Shown in pieces: positions 1 to 17,413 of a DNA stretch of 64,000 nt. Each line of letters opens with the position of its first letter. The first letter of the stretch is position 1. The DNA lies in contig DASWWW010000001.1 of assembly GCA_036400935.1 (NCBI GenBank), positions 118,375 to 182,374 of the forward strand, read 5' to 3'. The notes under the pieces were generated by a model. That model ran no database searches. It saw nothing but the letters and a program-made list of their open reading frames with translations, and was not told the origin of the DNA. The DNA comes from Minisyncoccota bacterium. Its GTDB lineage: Bacteria; Patescibacteriota; Minisyncoccia; Phycocordibacterales; UBA6065. A program made the translations under genes and the position numbers.

Positions 1-426
1 GCTCAGGTTCCCGCGCCCTCGAAGTTGATCAATATCTCCGTCCAGGTGCCGATTACCGATGAGTACACCTCGGCAACCGCGGGATTCGTTATCCGCGGCG
101 ATACGGTCAAGAAGGTGCTCATCCGCGCCGTCGGCCCCGGCCTGGCTCCGTTCGGTGTGACCAAGTTCAATCCCGATCCCCGCCTCACCCTGTACAACTC
201 CGCCGGCGCGCAGATCGGCATGAGCGACGACTGGGGCCAGTTCGTCGGTGATGCTGAGGCCACCAGCCGCGTCGCGGCAAGCGTCGGCGCGTTCGCCCTG
301 ACGCCCGGCAGCAATGATGCGGCCCTCGTAGCCAATCTTGGTCCCGGCGCCTACACCGTAAAGGTGGAGGGTGCCCGGAGCGGCGACAAGGGTATCATCC
401 TTATCGAGGCATACGACGCTCCTTGA
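1..426 (+). CDS. 3' end of a secreted repeat protein (PPC-like 'NDDW' beta-sandwich repeat); the 5' end lies outside the window
   Basis: The open frame runs from the window edge. The domain motif (GFVIRGD..KKVLIRAVGPGL..FGV..DPRLTLY....IGMSDDWGQ ... GPGAYTVKVEG..G..ILIEAYD) recurs in 629..1438 and in 23831..24751. A hairpin terminator follows at 438..467. Confidence 0.6.
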   Translation, partial: AQVPAPSKLINISVQVPITDEYTSATAGFVIRGDTVKKVLIRAVGPGLAPFGVTKFNPDPRLTLYNSAGAQIGMSDDWGQFVGDAEATSRVAASVGAFALTPGSNDAALVANLGPGAYTVKVEGARSGDKGIILIEAYDAP

Positions 427-437
427 GAGCGGCGCAA

Positions 438-467
438 GCCCGGTCACAAGTGACCGGGCTTTTTTTC
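438..467 (+). terminator. rho-independent terminator (CCCGGTCAC-AAG-GTGACCGGG plus T7)
   Basis: A perfect 9 bp stem followed by a T-run sits directly after the stop codon at 426. Confidence 0.7.
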
Positions 468-484
468 TTGCCCAAACCATGATA

Positions 485-513
485 TTGACATTTATGTTAT
501 TTTATGCTAATTT
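485..513 (+). promoter_or_regulatory. sigma70-like promoter TTGACA-17-TAATTT
   Basis: A consensus -35 and an AT-rich -10 lie upstream of the 629 start. Confidence 0.45.
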
Positions 514-628
514 CCAGAACGTAAGGCCCAGCAACGGCTTATGCTCTTTAAAATCGACGTACGAAATTTCAGGCAATAGGTTGCCGAAAAAGCGTCTTTG
601 GACAGGAGCTTTGGGAACTGTTTTCTCC

Positions 629-4606: not shown

Positions 4607-4744
4607 ACGGTGTACGCATTTTGCGACCTTTTTCATTACCTTTGTAAGTTATTGAAAGAGTTTAAAAGCTTAGAACATTAATTTTTAAGCACCCTGGATT
4701 TGCAACCATCTCGCGCGCAGATCTAGGAGGCTTACCAAAACGTT

Positions 4745-5938
4745 ATGGCAGAATTTGCACGAACAAAGCCTCACGTAAACGTAGGAACCATCGGTCACGT
4801 CGACCACGGAAAGACTACGCTTACTACGGCTATTCTCGCGACTCAGGCTCGCGACGGTCTCGCAGTAGGTAAGGCATACGCCGACATTGCAAAGGGAGGT
4901 ACGGTCCGCGACGCATCTAAGGTCGTTACCATCTCTCTCGCGCACGTAGAGTACGAGTCAAACACTCGACACTACGCTCACATCGACGCCCCTGGTCACG
5001 CCGACTACATTAAGAACATGATTACCGGTGCCGCTCAGATGGACGGCGCTATCCTCGTGGTATCTGCGATTGACGGCCCAATGCCACAGACTCGAGAGCA
5101 TATCCTCCTCGCAAAGCAGGTTGGAGTGCCAAAGATCGTGGTTTTCCTCAACAAGTGCGACGCGGTAGAGGACAAGGATCTCATCGACCTCGTTGAGGGC
5201 GAAGTCCGAGACCTCCTCACCAAGTACGGCTACGACGGCGCAAACACTCCAGTTATCCGCGGATCGGCCCTCAAGGCCCTCGAAGCGGCTAACAACACCG
5301 ACGAGTGGGCAATGAAGGTCAAGGACCTCATGAACACTCTCGACTCTTACATCCCTATGCCAGAGCGAGCTACGGACAAGCCTTTCCTTATGCCTATCGA
5401 GGACATCTTCTCGATCGAAGGACGAGGAACCGTGGTTACGGGACGAATCGAGCGAGGACAGATCAAGGTCGGTGAGGAAGTCGAGATCATCGGTATCAAC
5501 CCGACATCAAAGACAACCATCACTGGTATCGAAATGTTCAACAAGCAGCTCCAGTCCGGTATGGCAGGAGACAACGCAGGACTCCTCCTCCGAGGTACTG
5601 CAAAGGACGCGGTTACTCGCGGACAGGTTCTCGCAAAGGCGGGATCTGTTACTCCTCACACAGAGTTCGAGGCTGAGGTTCTCATCCTCAAGAAGGAAGA
5701 GGGAGGCCGACATACCCCATTCTTCAACGGCTACAAGCCACAGTTCTACGTTCGAACTACGGACGTTACTGGTGAGGTAACCCTCGCCCCTGGAGTAGAG
5801 ATGGTTATGCCTGGAGATACCGTTACCTTCAAGGTAAAGCTCCACGCTCCTATCGCCCTTGAGGACAAGCAGCGCTTCGCTATCCGAGAAGGAGGCAAGA
5901 CTGTCGGAGCAGGCGTCGTAACCAAGATCATCGCGTAA
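4745..5938 (+). CDS. tuf: elongation factor Tu
   Basis: It has the [11 protein letters not shown]-loop, DCPGHADY and NKCD motifs over its full length, and an AGGAGG RBS. Confidence 0.97.
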
Positions 5939-10453: not shown

Positions 10454-11308
10454 ATGAAAACATATCGACCAACAAGCCCGGGACGACGCCAGATGCAGAC
10501 GGTCAACTTCAAGGAGTACATCACCAAGAAGGACCCGTTGAAGGCCCTCACCCGAGGACGAAAACGAGACGTAGGACGAAACTCTGCGGGACGCGTGACC
10601 GTACGACACAAGGGAGGCGGACACAAGAGGCTCTATCGAGAGATCTCGTTCATGTTCGACAAGAAGGACATCCCGGCGACGATCCAGTCTGTCGAGTACG
10701 ATCCTAACCGATCAGGATTCATCGGCCTCGTCGCGTATCGCGACGGCGAGCGACGCTACGTTCTCCTTCCAAAGGCGGCAAAGGTAGGCGGAACCATCAT
10801 CGCTGGCGCAACTGCTCCTATCGAGCCAGGAAACGCCCTTCCTTTGAAGAAGATCCCAGTAGGTACATTCATCTACAACATCGAGCTCAAGCCTAACTCA
10901 GGCGCAAAGGCGGCTCGAGCGGCGGGTATCTTCGCTCAGGTCATCGGTAACGACGCAAGCTACACCATGATCAAGATGCCATCGACCGAGGTCCGAAAGG
11001 TCCACGAGGAGGCATACGCTATGATTGGCCAGGTATCGAACGACGAGCACTGGTTGGTAAACTCAGGCAAGGCAGGACGCTCACGATGGCTCGGCATTCG
11101 ACCGACCGTCCGAGGTACAGCCCAGAACCCTGTAGATCATCCATACGGAGGAGGTGAAGGACGACAGGGACGAGGCCTTCGACGACTCAAGACCCGCTGG
11201 GGTAAGCCAGCAGGAAAGGGCCAGAAGACTCGAACCCCAAAGAAGTACTCGAACGTCTTCATCGTTTCTCGCCGAAAGGTCGGAAAGGACCGAAACTCGA
11301 TCCAGTAA
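10454..11308 (+). CDS. rplB: 50S ribosomal protein L2
   Basis: L2 motifs are present throughout. Confidence 0.95.
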   Translation: MKTYRPTSPGRRQMQTVNFKEYITKKDPLKALTRGRKRDVGRNSAGRVTVRHKGGGHKRLYREISFMFDKKDIPATIQSVEYDPNRSGFIGLVAYRDGERRYVLLPKAAKVGGTIIAGATAPIEPGNALPLKKIPVGTFIYNIELKPNSGAKAARAAGIFAQVIGNDASYTMIKMPSTEVRKVHEEAYAMIGQVSNDEHWLVNSGKAGRSRWLGIRPTVRGTAQNPVDHPYGGGEGRQGRGLRRLKTRWGKPAGKGQKTRTPKKYSNVFIVSRRKVGKDRNSIQ

Positions 11309-11321
11309 ATCTAAATTTTCT

Positions 11322-11357
11322 AAAGCAAAGCGCCCGAAAGGGCGTTTTTGCTTTGCC
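11322..11357 (+). terminator. rho-independent terminator after rplB
   Basis: The hairpin AAAGCAAAGCGCCCGAAAGGGCGTTTTTGCTTTGCC follows the stop. Confidence 0.7.
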
Positions 11358-11381
11358 TGAAAGCGGTGCTAGACTGTTCGC

Positions 11382-11912
11382 ATGGAAAACAATACACATC
11401 AGAACGCATTTACTCAGGCTAATCCGGCTTCAGCCCCGGCGTCAGTCGCTCCAGCTTCTGGCAAAAGCTCTTTCTGGAAGGGCGTAGCGGTCGGTGCGGT
11501 AGGCATAGTCGTGCTCATGATCCTCGTCTCTATCCTTGCGGCAGGCTTTGCCTACTCGAGGGTCCAGCCCGCCCTCAACAATGCCCAGATCAAGGGCAAT
11601 CTTGCGGCGGTGCGTGCCAATCTCTCCAATCTGCGTGCCGAGGCCGAGGTGTATTATGACCGCAATAACGGCTCGTACGCGGGAGTCTGCAGGAGCGACA
11701 ATTTCGATGCTACCCTTAATAGCATCGTGTCGCCGATCGCTCTCAACGGTGACGTTATGTGCGCCGCTAACGCCCAGGAATACATTGCCGCGGCGACCGT
11801 TCAGGATGTCGACGGCATAAGGATGGTCTGCGTGGACAGCACGGGCGCAGCGACCTCTAATTTTGGAAGGGCGAAGGACCATTTCGCGGCGGAAAAAATG
11901 ACCTGCAACTAG
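11382..11912 (+). CDS. N-terminally anchored pilin-like protein (a type IV pilin-like helix with a C-terminal Cys pair but no prepilin cleavage motif), inserted between rplB and def
   Basis: A long TM helix is followed by a pilin-like segment (AAVRANLSNLRAEAEVYYDRNNGSYAG) and C-terminal cysteines (MCAAN...MVCVD...MTCN). There is no G/FTLIE class III signal. Confidence 0.5.
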   Translation: MENNTHQNAFTQANPASAPASVAPASGKSSFWKGVAVGAVGIVVLMILVSILAAGFAYSRVQPALNNAQIKGNLAAVRANLSNLRAEAEVYYDRNNGSYAGVCRSDNFDATLNSIVSPIALNGDVMCAANAQEYIAAATVQDVDGIRMVCVDSTGAATSNFGRAKDHFAAEKMTCN

Positions 11913-11913
11913 C

Positions 11914-12474
11914 ATGAGCAAGCAGAAGCCGACACTCTTGCGCATCGCCGAAATAGGAAACCCGGTCCTTCGCGCTATCGCGGCCCCTGTCGCCGATCCG
12001 AAGGCTCCCGAGATCCAGCACCTGATCGACAGCATGATAGCGACGTGCGCCGAGCAGGGAGGTGTCGGCATGGCCGCACCTCAGGTGCATGAGTCATCCC
12101 GCCTGATGATCATCGCCTCTACGCCCACTCCGGCGTATCCGGACGCGCCGAAGGTAAAGCCCTTTGCCGTCATAAACCCGGAGCTTATCGCTTCGTCGAA
12201 AGAGACAGAGCTCGGCTGGGAAGGGTGCATGAGCGTGCCCAATATCCGCGGGCAGGTGGATCGCAACGTGTGGGTGAAGGTTAGCTATACCGACCGTGCG
12301 GGCAAAAAGACCCAAAAGCGCTTTACTGGCCTCATCGCTCGCATATTCCAGCACGAGCTCGATCATTTGAACGGCCTCTTCTTCCTCGATCGGGCGAATC
12401 CAAAGACGCTCGTATCGAATGCGGAGTTCCAGAAGATTATGGCTAAGGGTAAGAAACCTAAGAATAAGAAATAA
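11914..12474 (+). CDS. def: peptide deformylase
   Basis: The GVGMAAPQ, EGCMS and QHELDHLNG (HExxH) motifs are present. Confidence 0.92.
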   Translation: MSKQKPTLLRIAEIGNPVLRAIAAPVADPKAPEIQHLIDSMIATCAEQGGVGMAAPQVHESSRLMIIASTPTPAYPDAPKVKPFAVINPELIASSKETELGWEGCMSVPNIRGQVDRNVWVKVSYTDRAGKKTQKRFTGLIARIFQHELDHLNGLFFLDRANPKTLVSNAEFQKIMAKGKKPKNKK

Positions 12475-12476
12475 TC

Positions 12477-12902
12477 ATGAAATTCCTCCTCAATACCTCG
12501 GAAAAGATAGGGAACTTCGGCTTTTGGCGCATCCTTACCAATTTCTGGACGGTAGTGTTCTATATCGCCATCACGTACGATTTCTTTTCTCATAACGCCC
12601 TCGATGAGAATCACATAATCCTCGCGGTCGCTGGAATATACTGTGCGTCGCTCGCCATCTACAGCGCCGAGAAGGAATTCCGCCGCTGGCATCACATGCA
12701 TCAGACTATGCACCCGGGTGAGATGTACGCCTTGCTCTGGACGCTTTTCATAATCGCGCTCATCACCGCCCAGGTCACGACAGGCGTCGAATATCACATG
12801 CCGCCGGAAGTCAGCGCCTCGTACATCGCCGTGATCTCGATCTTGGCCCTCACGCGCGAGTCTAAGAACATGTATAAGAGGAAAGGAGGGAAGAGGAATT
12901 AA
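12477..12902 (+). CDS. small integral membrane protein (hypothetical, about 4 TM)
   Basis: It has hydrophobic segments, and its start overlaps the def stop (ATAATCATG). Confidence 0.5.
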   Translation: MKFLLNTSEKIGNFGFWRILTNFWTVVFYIAITYDFFSHNALDENHIILAVAGIYCASLAIYSAEKEFRRWHHMHQTMHPGEMYALLWTLFIIALITAQVTTGVEYHMPPEVSASYIAVISILALTRESKNMYKRKGGKRN

Positions 12903-12907
12903 AGATA

Positions 12908-12934
12908 CCCGCCTCGGCATTTTGCCTTGGCGGG
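12908..12934 (+). terminator. rho-independent terminator
   Basis: The hairpin is CCCGCCTCGGCATTTTGCCTTGGCGGG. Confidence 0.55.
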
Positions 12935-12943
12935 TAGGGTAAT

Positions 12944-12972
12944 TTGACATTTCACGCCCCTTCCGCTAGTAT
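12944..12972 (+). promoter_or_regulatory. sigma70-like promoter TTGACA-17-TAGTAT for the rpsS-rplE block, followed by a palindrome-rich leader (12980..13096)
   Basis: It has the same hexamers and spacing as the rpsZ promoter at 17151. The leader holds the palindromes CTAGATCGAATCTAG and AACCTAGGTT. Confidence 0.55.
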
Positions 12973-13096
12973 GTCCAAACCAGTTCGAAATAGGGTATCT
13001 AGATCGAATCTAGGCTTATAAACCTAGGTTTTTCATTTCTAGAGCTGTCACACCATGACACCCTAGCCGCTCGAGCTTATAATTTATTGTCTCTAA

Positions 13097-13450
13097 ATGA
13101 CACGATCACTCTCAAAAGGCCCTTACGTAGACGAACGCGTTCTCGCAAAGATCGCAGGAAAGAAGCCACAGGAAACTGGGGTTATTAAGACTTGGTCACG
13201 AGCATGCCACATCTCTCCTGAGATGGTCGGCTTTAAGTTCGGCGTACATAACGGCAAAGACTTCATCGAGGTATTGGTGGCAGAGGACATGGTGGGCCAC
13301 CGACTCGGTGAATTTTCTTTGACCCGAAAGTTCTCGAAGCACGGAGGAAAGATGCAGAAGGAGCTCGAGATGAAGAAGAAGGAGAGCGAGGTCGCGGCAG
13401 CTCAGGCGGCAAAGGGCGCGGCTACTGATAAGAAGGCAGCAGCAAAATAA
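13097..13450 (+). CDS. rpsS: 30S ribosomal protein S19 with a Lys/Ala-rich C-terminal extension
   Basis: The S19 core (GPYVDERVL...HNGK) is present. Confidence 0.93.
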
Positions 13451-15899: not shown

Positions 15900-16448
15900 A
15901 TGAAAACTCTCAAAGAAAAGCAGGCAGACGCATACGAGGTGATGAAGAAGCAGTTCGGCTTCACCAACGCGATGCAGGCTCCAAAGATCCTCAAGGTTGT
16001 CGTCTCTGCGGGCGTCGGATCTTTCGGCGACAAGAAGAAGGTAGAACTCGCTGGCGACCGATTGATGAAGATCACCGGTCAGAAGGCTGTCCTTCGCGGC
16101 GCGAAGAAGTCTATCGCTTCGTACAAGAGCCGAGAAGGCGATCCTATGGGCTACCAGGTCACCCTCCGAGGCGCAAAGATGTGGCACTTCCTCGAGAAGC
16201 TCGTCAACATCGCTCTCCCTCGAACAAAGGACTTCCGCGGACTCCCATCTACATCGGCTGATGGAATGGGCGGATACTCTATCGGAATCAAGGAGACCTC
16301 TATTTTCCCTGAGTGCTCTGAAGAAGAGTTGAAGGACGTATTCGGCCTCGGCATTACTGTCGTAACGAACGTAAAGCCGAAGGATCAGACAAAGAAGTTC
16401 CTCGAGCTCCTCAATTTCCCGATCAAGAAGGTAGAAGCATCAAAATAA
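15900..16448 (+). CDS. rplE: 50S ribosomal protein L5
   Basis: L5 homology is present. Confidence 0.93.
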   Translation: MKTLKEKQADAYEVMKKQFGFTNAMQAPKILKVVVSAGVGSFGDKKKVELAGDRLMKITGQKAVLRGAKKSIASYKSREGDPMGYQVTLRGAKMWHFLEKLVNIALPRTKDFRGLPSTSADGMGGYSIGIKETSIFPECSEEELKDVFGLGITVVTNVKPKDQTKKFLELLNFPIKKVEASK

Positions 16449-16463
16449 ATCTCAAAAAGTAGA

Positions 16464-16492
16464 AAAAGCCACCTCGAACAGGTGGTTTTTTC
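16464..16492 (+). terminator. rho-independent terminator after rplE
   Basis: The hairpin is AAAAAGCCACCTCGAACAGGTGGTTTTTT. Confidence 0.75.
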
Positions 16493-16499
16493 TTGCCTA

Positions 16500-16527
16500 T
16501 TGACTATTTTATGATATGTGCTATAGT
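16500..16527 (+). promoter_or_regulatory. promoter TTGACT-16-TATAGT firing into the non-coding island
   Basis: A consensus-like hexamer pair sits immediately after the terminator, and no credible ORF lies downstream. Confidence 0.45.
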
Positions 16528-16534
16528 GCACAGG

Positions 16535-17145
16535 CCAGATTAGTGATGCGTAGATAGGTGCCGGACATTCGAGCCCGCCTGTCGAAATCAGCGAATCGGT
16601 ATTTGGACCTGTTATTGGGAATGTATATGGTCCAAATGCTAGCGTTCCCACACATCTAGTCAGACAGCCAATGATCGCTCGGAAGATGTGTTGCTCTTTG
16701 GAAGATGACGGATTAGCGAGTGATCTAGCGCATGAATAAGACCGGTTGCTTACACTTTGGGACCGGAACCCCACTTAGTCATGTTGAATCGTGATAGCGT
16801 TTGACGTCTTGGCTTCTCGGACGTCTGAAACGGCTTGAGGACAAAAAGATGGCTTCTTCTTCGCGAAAGCCTACTTGTCGCTGCGACGAGAATATACATT
16901 AGAGCGAAGTCTGCAGCTTCTGCAGATTTGCCCGAAAGGGCAGAAAGGGGGCGTGTCACCATGTGTGCCACGCTCTTTTACGTTATGGTACGACTTTACT
17001 TAGGTAAAAATTGATGAGGTGTTCATCCCTTCCTCCCTATATTTCGCCTGAATAGGGGCTCACGGAGGCCGGCGGGCCGAGCGTGAAGGCGTTCCGTCCA
17101 TCGGAACGACCTGGACCCTAGGCAGGCGAAATATAGGGAGGAAGT
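16535..17145 (+). ncRNA. candidate structured non-coding RNA or regulatory island between rplE and rpsZ, identity unknown
   Basis: About 600 nt have no protein-like ORF. A 22 bp perfect inverted repeat (CTTCCTCCCTATATTTCGCCTG at 17019..17040 and CAGGCGAAATATAGGGAGGAAG at 17123..17144) encloses a GC-rich structured loop. Further hairpins are present (GACGTC..GACGTC, CTGCAGCTTCTGCAG). It has its own upstream promoter. Confidence 0.3.
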
Positions 17146-17150
17146 GGGGT

Positions 17151-17179
17151 TTGACACCTCGCAATTCATTTGCTAGTAT
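17151..17179 (+). promoter_or_regulatory. sigma70-like promoter TTGACA-17-TAGTAT for rpsZ-rpsH-...-secY
   Basis: It is identical in architecture to the promoter at 12944. Confidence 0.55.
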
Positions 17180-17227
17180 GCCCAGACAAGCTTTTTTCAA
17201 GGCTTTTTTATTTACATCAGGGAAAAA

Positions 17228-17413
17228 ATGGCAAAAACATCAGTAATAGCGCGGTCACAGAAGAAACCAAAGTTCTCTACGAGGACTGTACGACGATGCT
17301 TCCGCTGCGGCCGAAAGAACGGCTTTATGCGAGATTTCGGAGTATGCCGAATCTGTTTCCGCGAGCTTGCTAACGACGGCCTCATCCCTGGTATAAAGAA
17401 ATCGTCTTGGTAG
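17228..17413 (+). CDS. rpsZ: 30S ribosomal protein S14 type Z (zinc-binding, 61 aa)
   Basis: It has the CxxC...CxxC pattern ([20 protein letters not shown]). Confidence 0.93.

Follow-up and report, generated by a model that had tools for sequence, protein, structure and literature searches.

The interval between rplE and rpsZ in the window (the whole 64-kb stretch of DNA analysed here) is a composite accessory island within the spc ribosomal-protein operon, not one RNA, and contains a structured module that is a real RNA-type fold maintained by compensatory substitutions. In related Patescibacteria, copies of this module recur at transcription-unit boundaries, both within the ribosomal-protein supercluster and in its surroundings. 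The interval is mostly unconserved filler, and its sole part under selection is the 145-nt module. On the basis of sequence comparison, we tentatively propose, with slightly less than even confidence, that the module would serve as an RNA boundary element on read-through transcripts and that the body of the island would be decayed or lineage-specific cargo.

Organization and variability of the rplE-rpsZ island

From left to right, the island consists of the rplE terminator, a promoter of its own, an orphan ORF-free unit of about 450 nt with a terminator-like hairpin, the 145-nt structured module and the rpsZ promoter. The features surrounding the module are as follows:

15900-16448, + strand: rplE (ribosomal protein L5), the left border of the island, assigned from its ORF and from a Pfam Ribosomal_L5 match on the identical locus L023
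16461-16493, + strand: intrinsic terminator of rplE (AAAAAGCCACCU...AGGUGGUUUUUU), an inverted repeat with a fold z of -5.8
16500-16527, + strand: island promoter TTGACT-16-TATAGT, with 10 of 12 consensus matches and a TG extension
16534-16980, + strand: orphan ORF-free body, located between the conserved island promoter and its own terminator-like hairpin
16945-16979, + strand: terminator-like hairpin (AAAGGGGGCGUG...CACGCUCUUUU) closing the body upstream of the module, with its stem at 16950-16969 followed by a T-run
17151-17179, + strand: rpsZ promoter TTGACA-17-TAGTAT, kept in all relatives whether or not they carry an insert
17188-17215, + strand: rpsZ leader with a small hairpin and a U-run (AAGCUUUUUUCAAGGCUUUUUUAUUU), whose sequence is kept in relatives and which is a putative attenuator-like element
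17228-17413, + strand: rpsZ (zinc-type S14), the right border of the island, assigned from its ORF and by tblastn

The initial annotation had described a terminator behind rplE, a consensus-like promoter, an interval devoid of plausible ORFs and an rpsZ promoter immediately downstream, and each of these elements was recovered at the positions listed. The ORF listing contained no credible ORF from the end of rplE (16448) to rpsZ (17228); the two longest ORFs of the island lie on the minus strand, one of them crossing the promoter, the terminator and the rplE 3' end. Hairpins homologous by alignment to the rplE terminator were found 3' of rplE in the loci L001, L039, L043, L018 and L032, and a counterpart of the island promoter (TTGAC(A/G)-17-TAnnAT) occupies the equivalent position in L001, L039 and L043. 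On its + strand the island is skewed (G>C and T>A), which the coding DNA on either side is not, and the hairpin of the rpsZ leader folds only weakly (z = -0.6).

No DNA homologue of the body was found in 84 loci except in the identical L023, and the body is missing even from genomes whose RplE is 91-96% identical. The identical locus is also present in SRR11449182. Its six-frame translation yielded no match at E <= 10 among 5.8 billion proteins, and no match was obtained when 12 cargo proteins from relatives were compared with it by tblastn, when it was compared with the L001 and L039 slot sequences by tblastx, or when it was scanned with Rfam. Furthermore, the fold of the body barely beats shuffled sequences (486 nt; z of -2.2 and -0.4 for the + and - strands, respectively), against a range of -1.8 to +2.1 in ten coding controls, and its closing hairpin reaches -26.8 kcal/mol for positions 16930-16995 (z = -2.8). 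Judging from its sequence, the body is probably a transcript of about 450 nt, and it most likely represents decayed or lineage-specific cargo without conserved function. A degraded pseudogene was considered and set aside, as no residual protein similarity appears in any frame; a gene that has decayed past recognition could still fit these results.

In some 30 genomes of related Patescibacteria (Paceibacteria-like), the gap between rplE and rpsZ measures between 109 and 1839 nt and is a fast-changing insertion spot. Its cargo varies by genome and includes PemK toxins, unknown proteins and a 499-aa surface protein, the PemK assignment being confirmed in L018 and L001 and taken from precomputed Pfam in L032. 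The same slot in relatives may hold unrelated sequences of about 440 nt or protein genes; local alignments between the slot sequences of the window, L001 and L039 were no better than those of shuffles, indicating no shared origin. Many relatives lack any insert and retain the promoter and leader alone, and only these last ~65 nt of the gap were found by BLAST to be common to all relatives. The S10-spc operon in this lineage is interrupted at fixed points (rpsJ/rplC, rplB/rpsS, rplE/rpsZ and secY/adk), each occupied by rapidly changing cargo, among it PemK and ParE toxins, with a restart promoter behind it, and the structured module is located at these breakpoints. A layout in which the most conserved operon of bacteria is broken at fixed, cargo-bearing points is unusual.

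Structure of the module in the window

The module comprises a long closing helix (P1 and P2) and two hairpins (P3 and P4) arranged around a three-way junction:

17016-17160, + strand: the whole structured module with the imperfect outer part of its closing helix, delimited from inverted repeats, folding and the covariance model
17029-17050, + strand: 5' arm of P1 (CTTCCTCCCTATATTTCGCCTG), the perfect complement of the 3' arm
17053-17057, + strand: 5' strand of P2 (UAGGG), pairing with CCCUA at 17116-17120 in predicted folds and corresponding to pairs 12-16 with 160-164 of the six-copy alignment
17059-17086, + strand: hairpin P3 (CUCACG-G-A-GGCC-GGCG-GGCC-GA-GCGUGA), assigned from invariant columns, covarying pairs and pattern matches
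17087-17112, + strand: P4, comprising three basal pairs (AGG/CCU), an A bulged out at 17109 and a variable hairpin (CGUUCCG-UCCAU-CGGAACG)
17113-17115, + strand: junction GGA after P4
17123-17144, + strand: 3' arm of P1 (CAGGCGAAATATAGGGAGGAAG), purine-rich and ending 6 nt before the -35 box

The 22-nt arms of P1 are perfectly complementary, the helix continues over 29 nt at 93% complementarity (17029-17057 with 17116-17144), and imperfect pairing extends out to 17016 and 17160, the outer extension overlapping the -35 box of the rpsZ promoter. The 22-bp perfect inverted repeat had already been noticed in the initial annotation, with the right arm correctly located but the left arm placed at 17019-17040; likewise, the GC-rich loop described there does hold the CGTTCCG/CGGAACG stem (the inner stem of P4, 17090-17096 with 17102-17108), but this loop is a three-way junction with two hairpins. 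An AA/GG mismatch pair separates P1 from P2 and corresponds to a tandem GA/GA in most relatives. P3 is the most conserved part of the module and combines a C-G-(N)-A ... G-A-G tandem G.A with a covarying stem of 4-6 bp and a GNNG loop.

The module folds at -96.7 kcal/mol, compared with -53 +/- 4 kcal/mol for shuffled sequences (z = -10.2, with 0 of 200 shuffles as good; z = -12.9 in a second run). When the whole 671 nt were folded, a z of -6.9 was obtained, nearly all of the signal coming from the module. The covariance model matched the window copy at 17042-17131 with 95.6 bits, and a score of 86.5 bits was reached with another model. The sequence 3' of the module (GUGGGGUUUGAC) has no U-tract, and neither do the closest relatives at this position.

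Conservation of the module as an RNA family

The architecture shared by the copies consists of a closing helix of at least 23 bp, a three-way junction, a P3 hairpin with the near-invariant C-G-(N)-A / G-A-G tandem-GA, and a variable P4 with a bulged A. The closing helix differs in sequence from copy to copy while its pairing is kept (23-39 pairs in 18 of 18 copies), and the core is invariant across lineages of 44-67% GC. In a hand-structured MAFFT alignment of six copies, 89% of the cells were paired (27-47% in slid controls), and in an alignment of 18 distinct copies 92.1% (35-46% in slid controls); in the alignments A3 and A6, which were fitted to the structure of the model, the paired fractions are somewhat inflated. 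Changes on both sides of a pair were observed for 24 of 35 pairs in the six-copy alignment, with 0 of 500 shuffles as good, and for 32 of 35 pairs in the 18-copy alignment, where none of 500 shuffles reached the observed value for four of five measures and 145 did so for the remaining one, further pair types. RNAalifold independently yielded the same junction, with 29 of 33 pairs compensatory. Ten of the 11 pairs of P4 covary, as do pairs 21/51, 22/50 and 29/44 of P3, and the covariance model recovered copies outside its training set. Moreover, in 12 of 15 copies the modelled strand had a better fold than the complementary strand (mean, 5.2 kcal/mol), and the alignment contains 13 G.U cells versus six A.C cells.

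A scan of the whole window with Rfam 15 at the gathering threshold returned only a tmRNA and two tRNAs located elsewhere, and a scan of 16300-17400 at E <= 10 gave only terminator-type noise of at most 23 bits; the homologous copies L026, L029, L030, L039 and L001 returned nothing relevant. The families covered comprise RNase P, SRP, 6S, tmRNA, riboswitches, ribosomal-protein leaders, ribozymes and the pemK and raiA motifs. No description of the module turned up in full-text literature searches, which extended to the core sequence. Among IMG/VR viral contigs there was no match beyond a GC-rich chance match of 18.9 bits, and a phage origin was discarded on the result of these scans; five of eight pattern matches in metagenomes were likewise chance matches in GC-rich DNA. 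To our knowledge, the core is unlike SRP domain IV, the Alu domain, 6S, 5S and RNase P, and also unlike hammerhead, HDV-like and twister ribozymes, K-turns and the sarcin-ricin loop.

The Rfam result agrees with the initial annotation, which had seen no convincing RNase P, SRP, 6S or tmRNA signature in the interval. Its suggestion of an unclassified structured RNA applies to 17016-17160, which has no Rfam family and displays compensatory changes, but not to the whole ~650 nt, in which the body is unconserved and folds little better than shuffles (z = -2.2). The folding and covariation analyses that it had recommended also separate the two parts: the module has a z of about -10 to -13 and covariation is strong in the hairpin region, but the body folds marginally and has no homologues. 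The module is a new RNA motif, with covariation that is unusually strong for so few sequences and with no Rfam family.

Genomic location and turnover of the module copies

The copies were found 3' of gene ends and upstream of the rpsZ, rpsS, adk and rpsB promoters, sometimes inverted or decayed, in loci most of which were fetched around the ribosomal-protein cluster, only three copies, from three short contigs, having been found free of that bias. A scan located a consensus promoter starting 13-24 nt past the end of the model in 10 of 16 copies; with the L005 rpsS copy, read by eye, the copies separated from the next gene by a consensus or near-consensus promoter number 11 of 18. Most copies (11/18) end 5-8 nt before the -35 box of this promoter. 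Since the promoter separates the module from the next gene in these 11 copies, including that of the window, the module lies outside the leader of that gene, and a 5' leader, a riboswitch or a ribosomal-protein autoregulatory leader was rejected on the same ground; the L026 copy, with an ATG 22 nt past the helix, could be an exception.

No promoter belonging to the module itself was found in the scan of 16 copies, only two of which have a weak promoter-like site within 160 nt upstream. No further terminator separates the upstream gene from the module in 12 of the 16 copies; the remaining four, that of the window among them, already have a canonical terminator 35-110 nt upstream, so that a terminator role would be redundant there and transcription of the module puzzling. 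The 5' arm of the module begins 0-20 nt from the upstream stop codon in L029, L030 and L001. Reading by eye identified a 3' U-run in five of 18 copies (L026, L030, L067 and twice in L005), the automatic flank count being uninformative in this respect because these runs and the A-runs are base-paired with each other in the minimum-energy fold. In the manner of bidirectional terminators, the L067 copy and the two copies of L005 have an A-run and a U-run at their flanks. The L030 copy, situated between convergent genes, carries a U-run and has no co-oriented downstream gene, and the L026 copy, with a U-run after it, has no co-oriented gene immediately upstream. Three copies (L067, L062 and L005) are inverted relative to their flanking genes.

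Module copies are gained, lost, truncated and occasionally inverted. Four genomes (L001, L005, L079 and L080) carry two copies 4-8 kb apart, and the outer arms of the two copies of one genome are unrelated. Only the 3' half of the module is present in L043, and L032 lacks the module at a site where L018 has it. A decayed copy is also present in the window:

12906-12936, + strand: scar left by a second copy of the module ahead of the rpsS promoter (TTGACA, 12944-12949), identified by eye in a sequence alignment

This scar retains left-arm sequence and lacks about 108 nt of its counterpart at positions 876-965 of L001. Covariance models and a 3-mismatch pattern detected no other copy in the 64-kb window, which holds one copy and the scar. 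Orthologous copies persist at the same site across genomes with RplE 76-96% identical, which indicates that inheritance has probably been mostly vertical; conservation does not extend to the sequence upstream of the rpsS-site orthologues.

Proposed role of the module

As a boundary element, the module would act at the RNA level on transcripts reading through from the upstream unit. The long helix could stop RNA polymerase; alternatively or additionally, it could be a cleavage site for RNase III and a barrier to 3' exonucleases. In both cases, the strong promoter at which the ribosomal-protein operon restarts would be insulated from accessory or upstream transcription, and the conserved junction and tandem-GA hairpin might bind a conserved factor. 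We infer a putative role as terminator, insulator or processing site from features of the copies. They present a G+C-rich hairpin at the end of a unit, after stop codons or cargo units, as intrinsic terminators do, and their near-continuous double-stranded RNA of about 20 bp or more (22 perfect bp in the window; 23-39 pairs in 18/18 copies) makes them predicted substrates of RNase III. Against this role, the copy of the window and its closest relatives are not canonical intrinsic terminators, as no U-tract follows the helix.

It is also possible, although we regard the proposal with some doubt, that the module founds a new class of Patescibacteria structured RNAs, a three-way junction with an invariant tandem-GA hairpin that a helix of at least two turns always closes. 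A conserved factor would read it to terminate, process or insulate transcripts at the breakpoints where toxin-rich accessory islands entered the S10-spc superoperon, which is otherwise universally conserved, making it a dedicated boundary device unlike ordinary terminators. Patescibacteria constitute a large share of bacterial diversity, and their RNA biology and transcription punctuation are almost uncharted. A factor-dependent boundary or processing element would offer a tangible way to approach how reduced genomes terminate and insulate transcription and, if confirmed, a compact insulator part for synthetic biology.

Two further observations speak against a boundary role. A plain boundary hairpin would need no invariant junction core, and a sequence-specific RNA function on sense transcripts would be impossible in the inverted copies of L067, L062 and L005.

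Alternative explanations

The module could be a stand-alone small-RNA gene, from which a junction core of ~75-110 nt would be released by RNase III, much as rRNAs are freed from their processing stems, to act in trans on a conserved protein. Such a gene would fit a core that is invariant despite the 44-67% GC range, a closing helix never shorter than 23 bp (a length that is unusual among structured RNAs and would suit RNase III), the occurrence of both orientations relative to the neighbours, and the L026 copy, which has no co-oriented gene immediately upstream and is followed by a U-run. We nevertheless consider it unlikely, given that a weak sigma-70-like promoter lies within 160 nt upstream in only two of 16 copies, that the 5' arm starts 0-20 nt from the upstream stop codon in L029, L030 and L001, that the sequence upstream of the orthologous rpsS-site copies is unconserved, and that copies are lost, truncated or absent in close relatives, which would be odd for a housekeeping RNA even if further copies may exist elsewhere. 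A sensor-type attenuator, in which a ribosomal protein or a small ligand bound to the tandem-GA hairpin and junction would set read-through as L4 does in the S10 leader, appears quite improbable: the main promoter of the downstream genes lies 3' of the module, the L030 copy has no co-oriented downstream gene, no likeness to a specific rRNA site could be shown, and no Rfam ribosomal-protein leader matched, although translation genes (rpsZ, rpsS, rpsB, adk and hpf) repeatedly follow just downstream of copies and a conserved core of non-Watson-Crick pairs is what protein-binding rRNA motifs typically contain. The initial proposal that the whole ~650 nt forms one promoter-driven structured ncRNA, or a large regulator of the distal ribosomal cluster, drew on the good promoter at 16500-16527 and the lack of an ORF, and the whole-region fold (z = -6.9) and the strand skew could be added in its favour. 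It is now highly improbable, the single-RNA version appearing largely refuted by lack of conservation, since the body is unconserved at 91-96% RplE identity and the same slot in relatives contains unrelated ~440-nt sequences, protein genes or no insert; in addition, the fold signal is marginal without the module, and a terminator-like hairpin parts the body from it. The regulator version is contradicted by the many relatives without any insert and by modules located before rpsS, adk and rpsB, between convergent genes, or in inverted orientation.

Two copies within 4-8 kb in four genomes, a sporadic distribution among close relatives with a clean presence/absence difference between L018 and L032, decayed copies, both orientations, and the proximity of copies to variable toxin-rich cargo islands could also be expected of a selfish or semi-mobile palindromic repeat (ERIC, Correia, BOX or MITE-like). 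The fold of such a repeat would be kept for its own spread as single-stranded DNA or RNA, and it would survive at permissive boundaries without host function beyond incidental termination. However, the outer arms are unrelated within a genome and only their pairing is kept, the opposite of terminal repeats recognised by a transposase. The 64-kb window holds one copy and one scar only, IMG/VR has no match, and the gene tables list no candidate mobilising gene beside any copy. Persistence of orthologous copies at 76-96% RplE identity suggests mostly vertical inheritance, and recombination between the long arms might explain the inverted copies; a selfish repeat therefore seems an improbable explanation as well. 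A DNA-level role, as a cruciform or protein-binding upstream element tuning the adjacent strong promoter (e.g., by absorbing negative supercoiling or recruiting an activator), would take advantage of a 3' arm that in 11 of 18 copies stops 5-8 nt short of the -35 box and thus spans roughly -42 to -65, of an outer helix that overlaps the -35 box in the window, and of the orientation independence of a DNA palindrome. This role is very unlikely in view of the tolerated G.U pairs and the consistently higher stability of the modelled strand over its complement, of the copies without a promoter on their 3' side (L030, L067, L062 and L005, the latter on the - strand), and of the promoters that function without the module in most relatives. 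Furthermore, cruciform extrusion with a centre of 70-160 nt is kinetically unfavourable.

Comparison with known elements

The module resembles ERIC/IRU, the Neisseria Correia elements and the pneumococcal BOX/RUP elements, intergenic repeats that fold in RNA. These are imperfect palindromes of 100-150 nt that lie in transcribed intergenic DNA, have several copies in a genome, may point either way and are sporadically distributed. Correia elements are RNase III substrates and adjoin or supply promoters. In these families, however, the terminal repeats are conserved between copies, whereas in the module the arms differ and the central junction core is conserved; the copy number of the module also appears low, and no target-site duplication was seen. 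Membership in the MITE/ERIC/Correia class was rejected because the terminal inverted repeats are not conserved within a genome (L001, L079, L080 and L005). Integron attC sites are likewise structured palindromes (60-140 nt) located 3' of variable, often toxin cargo, in which structure is kept over stem sequence. They exhibit the reverse pattern of conservation, the module having a conserved centre and a variable base, and an attC assignment was dismissed, as the helix base carries no R''/R' cores (RYYYAAC / GTTRRRY) and the loci examined contain no cassette arrays or integrase.

Like the L4-S10 attenuator and the ribosomal-protein leaders of Rfam, the module is found in the ribosomal-protein supercluster, forms a hairpin that could stop transcription and has a non-canonical core that might be a protein site; it differs in lying upstream of the promoter, in occurring also away from ribosomal-protein genes and in matching no Rfam leader. 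With the processing stems of rRNA precursors it shares a long, near-perfect flanking helix that encloses a conserved structured RNA, but the RNA enclosed here is only ~70-90 nt, multi-copy and dispensable at single sites, and its cleavage is a prediction. Compared with intrinsic terminators, the module has a stem of 23-39 bp instead of 5-12 bp, a "loop" that is a conserved three-way junction of 70-160 nt instead of 3-8 nt, an invariant core that would not be expected in a terminator and, in the window, no U-tract. It nonetheless resembles these terminators, which are often bidirectional, in being a stable hairpin directly after a unit, in a terminator-then-promoter position, and in the 3' U-run of five of 18 copies, several of which also have a 5' A-run (L005 twice, L067, L030 and L026).

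A hypervariable, composite island between rplE and rpsZ

The region belongs to a ribosomal-protein supercluster of a patescibacterial (Paceibacteria/Parcubacteria-like) genome, the taxon names being those of the database records, and segment 14000–19000 of the window has an identical copy in a Logan assembly of SRR11449182. The initial annotation described a single promoter-driven non-coding RNA of about 650 nt, carrying a 22-bp inverted repeat, between rplE and rpsZ. Its promoter and the downstream rpsZ promoter were located, and no credible ORF was found in any frame over the ~500 nt that follow the island promoter-like site. The 22-nt arms are perfectly complementary as proposed, the left arm lying at 17029–17050 and not at 17019–17040. 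Arm pairing reaches 29 nt at 93% and continues imperfectly out to 17016–17160, the limits of the 145-nt element hereafter called the module.

Features of the rplE–rpsZ interval (window coordinates)
16448: end of rplE
16461–16493: rplE terminator hairpin
16500–16527: island promoter-like site, TTGACT-16-TATAGT
16945–16979: terminator-like hairpin, setting the ORF-free body apart from the module
17151–17179: rpsZ promoter, TTGACA-17-TAGTAT, 3' of the large inverted repeat
17228: start of rpsZ

An RplE scan of one genome per species yielded 22 loci, among which the rplE–rpsZ distance is 109–211 nt in seven, 640–780 nt in four and 1372–1839 nt in five; additional loci retrieved through L14 homologues have gaps of 145, 274, 670, 1200 and 1276 nt. 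The gap is a hypervariable island, composite in structure, whose cargo differs from genome to genome. A PemK/MazF-type toxin is encoded in five relatives' loci, as judged from Pfam for the L001 and L018 proteins, precomputed Pfam for L032, tblastn for L005 and sequence reading for L039. An unrelated ~140-aa family makes up the cargo of L002, L006 and L014, whereas L007 encodes a 499-aa surface-type protein and L009 has other genes. Only the last ~65 nt before rpsZ (promoter and leader) are common to all loci; the rplE terminator is common to the genomes with an insert, several of which also have the island promoter at the equivalent position.

A second variable island (11309–13096) interrupts the superoperon between rplB (10454–11308) and rpsS (13097–13450). 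It encodes a 176-aa unknown protein, peptide deformylase (11914–12474) and a 141-aa unknown protein in the window, and PemK, ParE, a sigma factor, two-component genes or PG-binding proteins in relatives. A small hairpin with a U-run behind it is present in the 5' leader of rpsZ (hairpin and U-run at 17188–17215, AAGCUUUUUUCAAGGCUUUUUU) and in that of rpsS (~13005–13035, CUAGGCUUAUAAACCUAGGUUUUU). Both are kept in relatives even where there is no insert; they look attenuator-like and may be autoregulatory sites.

The module is a conserved fold

The predicted folding energy of the module (-96.7 kcal/mol, compared with -53 for shuffled sequences; z = -10.2, or -12.9 in a separate run) is far beyond chance, and it is the module that carries the z of -6.9 obtained for the whole 671 nt. 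Taken by itself, the 486-nt body gave z = -2.2 (+ strand) and -0.4 (- strand); for ten coding controls drawn from the window, z spanned -1.8 to +2.1. Rfam searches of the rplE–rpsZ interval returned nothing, either at gathering thresholds or at E <= 10.

By BLAST, only the hairpin region is common to the window, L001 and L018, with arm substitutions that keep the pairing. A degenerate core pattern identified three more copies in unrelated metagenome contigs (L026, L029 and L030); its other five matches were rejected as chance occurrences in GC-rich DNA. Six copies were aligned with MAFFT and a structure was drawn by hand: 89% of cells were paired and 24 of 35 pairs had changed on both sides; none of 500 shuffles was as good, and slid controls gave 27–47%. 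Two covariance models (R1 and R2) then recovered copies outside their training sets in L001 (876–965), L019, L012/L049/L050, L039, L079 (two), L080 (two), L083, L067, L062 and L005 (two), with E-values that are rough because calibration was shortened. Over 18 distinct copies, 92.1% of cells are paired and 32 of 35 pairs show double-sided changes, the compensatory changes in relatives for which the initial annotation had called; none of 500 shuffles reached the observed value for four of five measures. The module alignments A3 and A6 were fitted to the model; RNAalifold by itself returned the same three-way junction. The proposal of an unclassified structured RNA holds for the 145-nt element, with its covariation and no Rfam match, and fails for the body, which has no homologue in the 84 loci compared other than the identical L023 and a z of -2.2.

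Anatomy of the module (window coordinates)
17029–17050 with 17123–17144: P1, arms of the closing helix, with an imperfect outer extension to 17016/17160
Between P1 and P2: purine-purine mismatch pair, AA/GG in the window copy and GA/GA in most copies
17053–17057 with 17116–17120: P2
17059–17086: P3, helix in which a near-invariant tandem G.A motif, C-G-(N)-A ... G-A-G, lies below a covarying 4–6 bp stem (GNNG loop)
17087–17112: P4, 3-bp base, bulged A and freely covarying hairpin
17113–17115: junction G-G/U-A/G

The P3 stem occurs as GGCC/GGCC, GGUC/GACC, GCGC/GCGC, GCCU/AGGC and AGACGC/GCGUCU. The closing helix comprises 23–39 pairs in every copy, and its sequence is unrelated from copy to copy, even inside one genome. 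The rpsZ-site copy of L001 (5649–5822) contains an extra 84-nt insert with additional predicted hairpins between P3 and P4, the rest being intact. In the window, L001, L018, L019, L012, L039, L079 and L080, the 5' arm always contains CCUCC/CUCCC, which resembles an anti-Shine-Dalgarno sequence, and the 3' arm GGAGG/GGGAG; both runs are missing from the arms in L026, L029 and L030, which belong to other lineages.

The body is not conserved

Segment 16495–17030 had no DNA match in 84 loci, apart from the identical L023, in a set that includes genomes with 91–96% identical RplE. When the six-frame translation of the body was concatenated and compared with 5.8 billion sequences, no protein matched at E <= 10, and tblastn with the cargo proteins of relatives was negative. 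L001 and L039 have a unit of ~400–450 nt in the same slot, ordered promoter, unit, terminator; similarity among the window, L001 and L039 slot sequences was no better than among shuffles. The body is not conserved, and since homologues are missing and the slot units are unlike each other, we read it as probably decayed or lineage-specific cargo, outside any conserved RNA. A signal peptide and a plausible small secreted protein can be read in one frame of the L001 unit (~4680–5040), but two TAA codons interrupt that frame, pointing to a recent pseudogene or to recoding. The window body contains a putative 17-codon ORF (16849–16902, MASSSRKPTCRCDENIH), whose ATG is preceded by GAGGA at a distance of 8 nt.

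Copies occupy unit boundaries and turn over

The module is a conserved fold at unit boundaries. Because the loci were for the most part retrieved around the ribosomal-protein cluster, the sampling does not establish that copies are enriched there.

Sites of module copies
rplE...|rpsZ site: window, L018, L001, L039
Upstream of rpsS: L001, L019, L012, L079, L080, L083, L005
secY|adk: L079, L080; L062 (inverted)
rpsJ|rplC: L067 (inverted)
Directly after rplE: L005 (inverted)
prfA|rpsB: L029
Beside a divergent intron-containing tRNA, before DUF167-hpf: L026
Between convergent genes: L030

A consensus promoter begins 13–24 nt past the model end, that is, 5–8 nt past the full helix, in 10 of 16 copies (11 of 18 with the L005 rpsS copy); on the upstream side, even a weak promoter-like site is present in just 2 of 16. 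No other terminator separates the upstream gene from the module in 12 of 16 copies; the remaining four, including that of the window, have one. Five copies end in a 3' U-run, several of them with a 5' A-run too; the window copy has no U-run.

Turnover is visible at several loci. A short hairpin at 12906–12936, upstream of the rpsS promoter (TTGACA 12944–12949, TAGTAT 12967–12972), keeps the left-arm sequence of the intact rpsS-site copy of L001 with ~108 nt missing, and is the remnant of a module copy after a deletion of that length. In L043–L046 the rpsZ-site copy is reduced to its 3' half, and L032 lacks the module exactly where its relative L018 carries one. No copy was found in IMG/VR.

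Three copies are inverted with respect to co-directional ribosomal-protein genes, namely L067 4263–4353 (-), L062 7442–7532 (-) and L005 3784–3878 (-), each lying 10–22 nt past the upstream stop codon. Two of them have an A-run and a U-run at their flanks, in the manner of a bidirectional terminator, and that of L005 replaces the rplE terminator. Speculatively, recombination between the long arms, flipping the core while the arms stay, would be a simple origin.

Possible function of the module

The position of the module, the lack of a promoter of its own, a closing helix of more than two turns and the terminator-type flanks of some lineages suggest that it is a boundary element for transcripts that read through from upstream, with the helix serving as a terminator or an RNase III substrate. 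A boundary element has no obvious need for the invariant junction, which therefore points to a putative binding partner. We class the module among structured intergenic elements that resemble terminators or insulators. In behaviour it is close to an elaborate intrinsic terminator, but the window copy lacks a U-tract and the 'loop' is large and structured.

Five alternatives are rated as less likely, the single long RNA least of all. A stand-alone small RNA released by RNase III would exploit the same helix, and an attenuator sensing a ribosomal protein or ligand would supply a partner for the junction. A selfish palindromic repeat would agree with the behaviour of the module, which is that of ERIC/Correia-type RNA palindromes, but its arms are not conserved. 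A DNA-level promoter element would fit the promoters that follow many copies; an RNA on the + strand is favoured, not decisively, because in 12 of 15 copies the modelled strand folds more stably than the complementary one and because G.U cells (13) are more numerous than A.C cells (6). A single long RNA, as initially annotated, would have to include the non-conserved body. Two further candidates were rejected: an attC site, for which the core sites and arrays are lacking, and a 5' leader, because a promoter lies downstream of the module. No Rfam 15 family matches the module and full-text literature searching found no description of it; that it represents a distinct new RNA class is a real possibility, at somewhat less than even odds.

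Other RNA features

The tRNA gene adjoining the L026 copy apparently contains a group I intron at 255–558 (-) (Rfam RF00028, 78 bits), in line with published reports of tRNA introns in Patescibacteria. The window also encodes a tmRNA at 45855–46248 (-), with the tag peptide AKSSVSPFFGAKDFSFAYAIA, and a tRNA-Ile with anticodon TAT at 49245–49319 (+).
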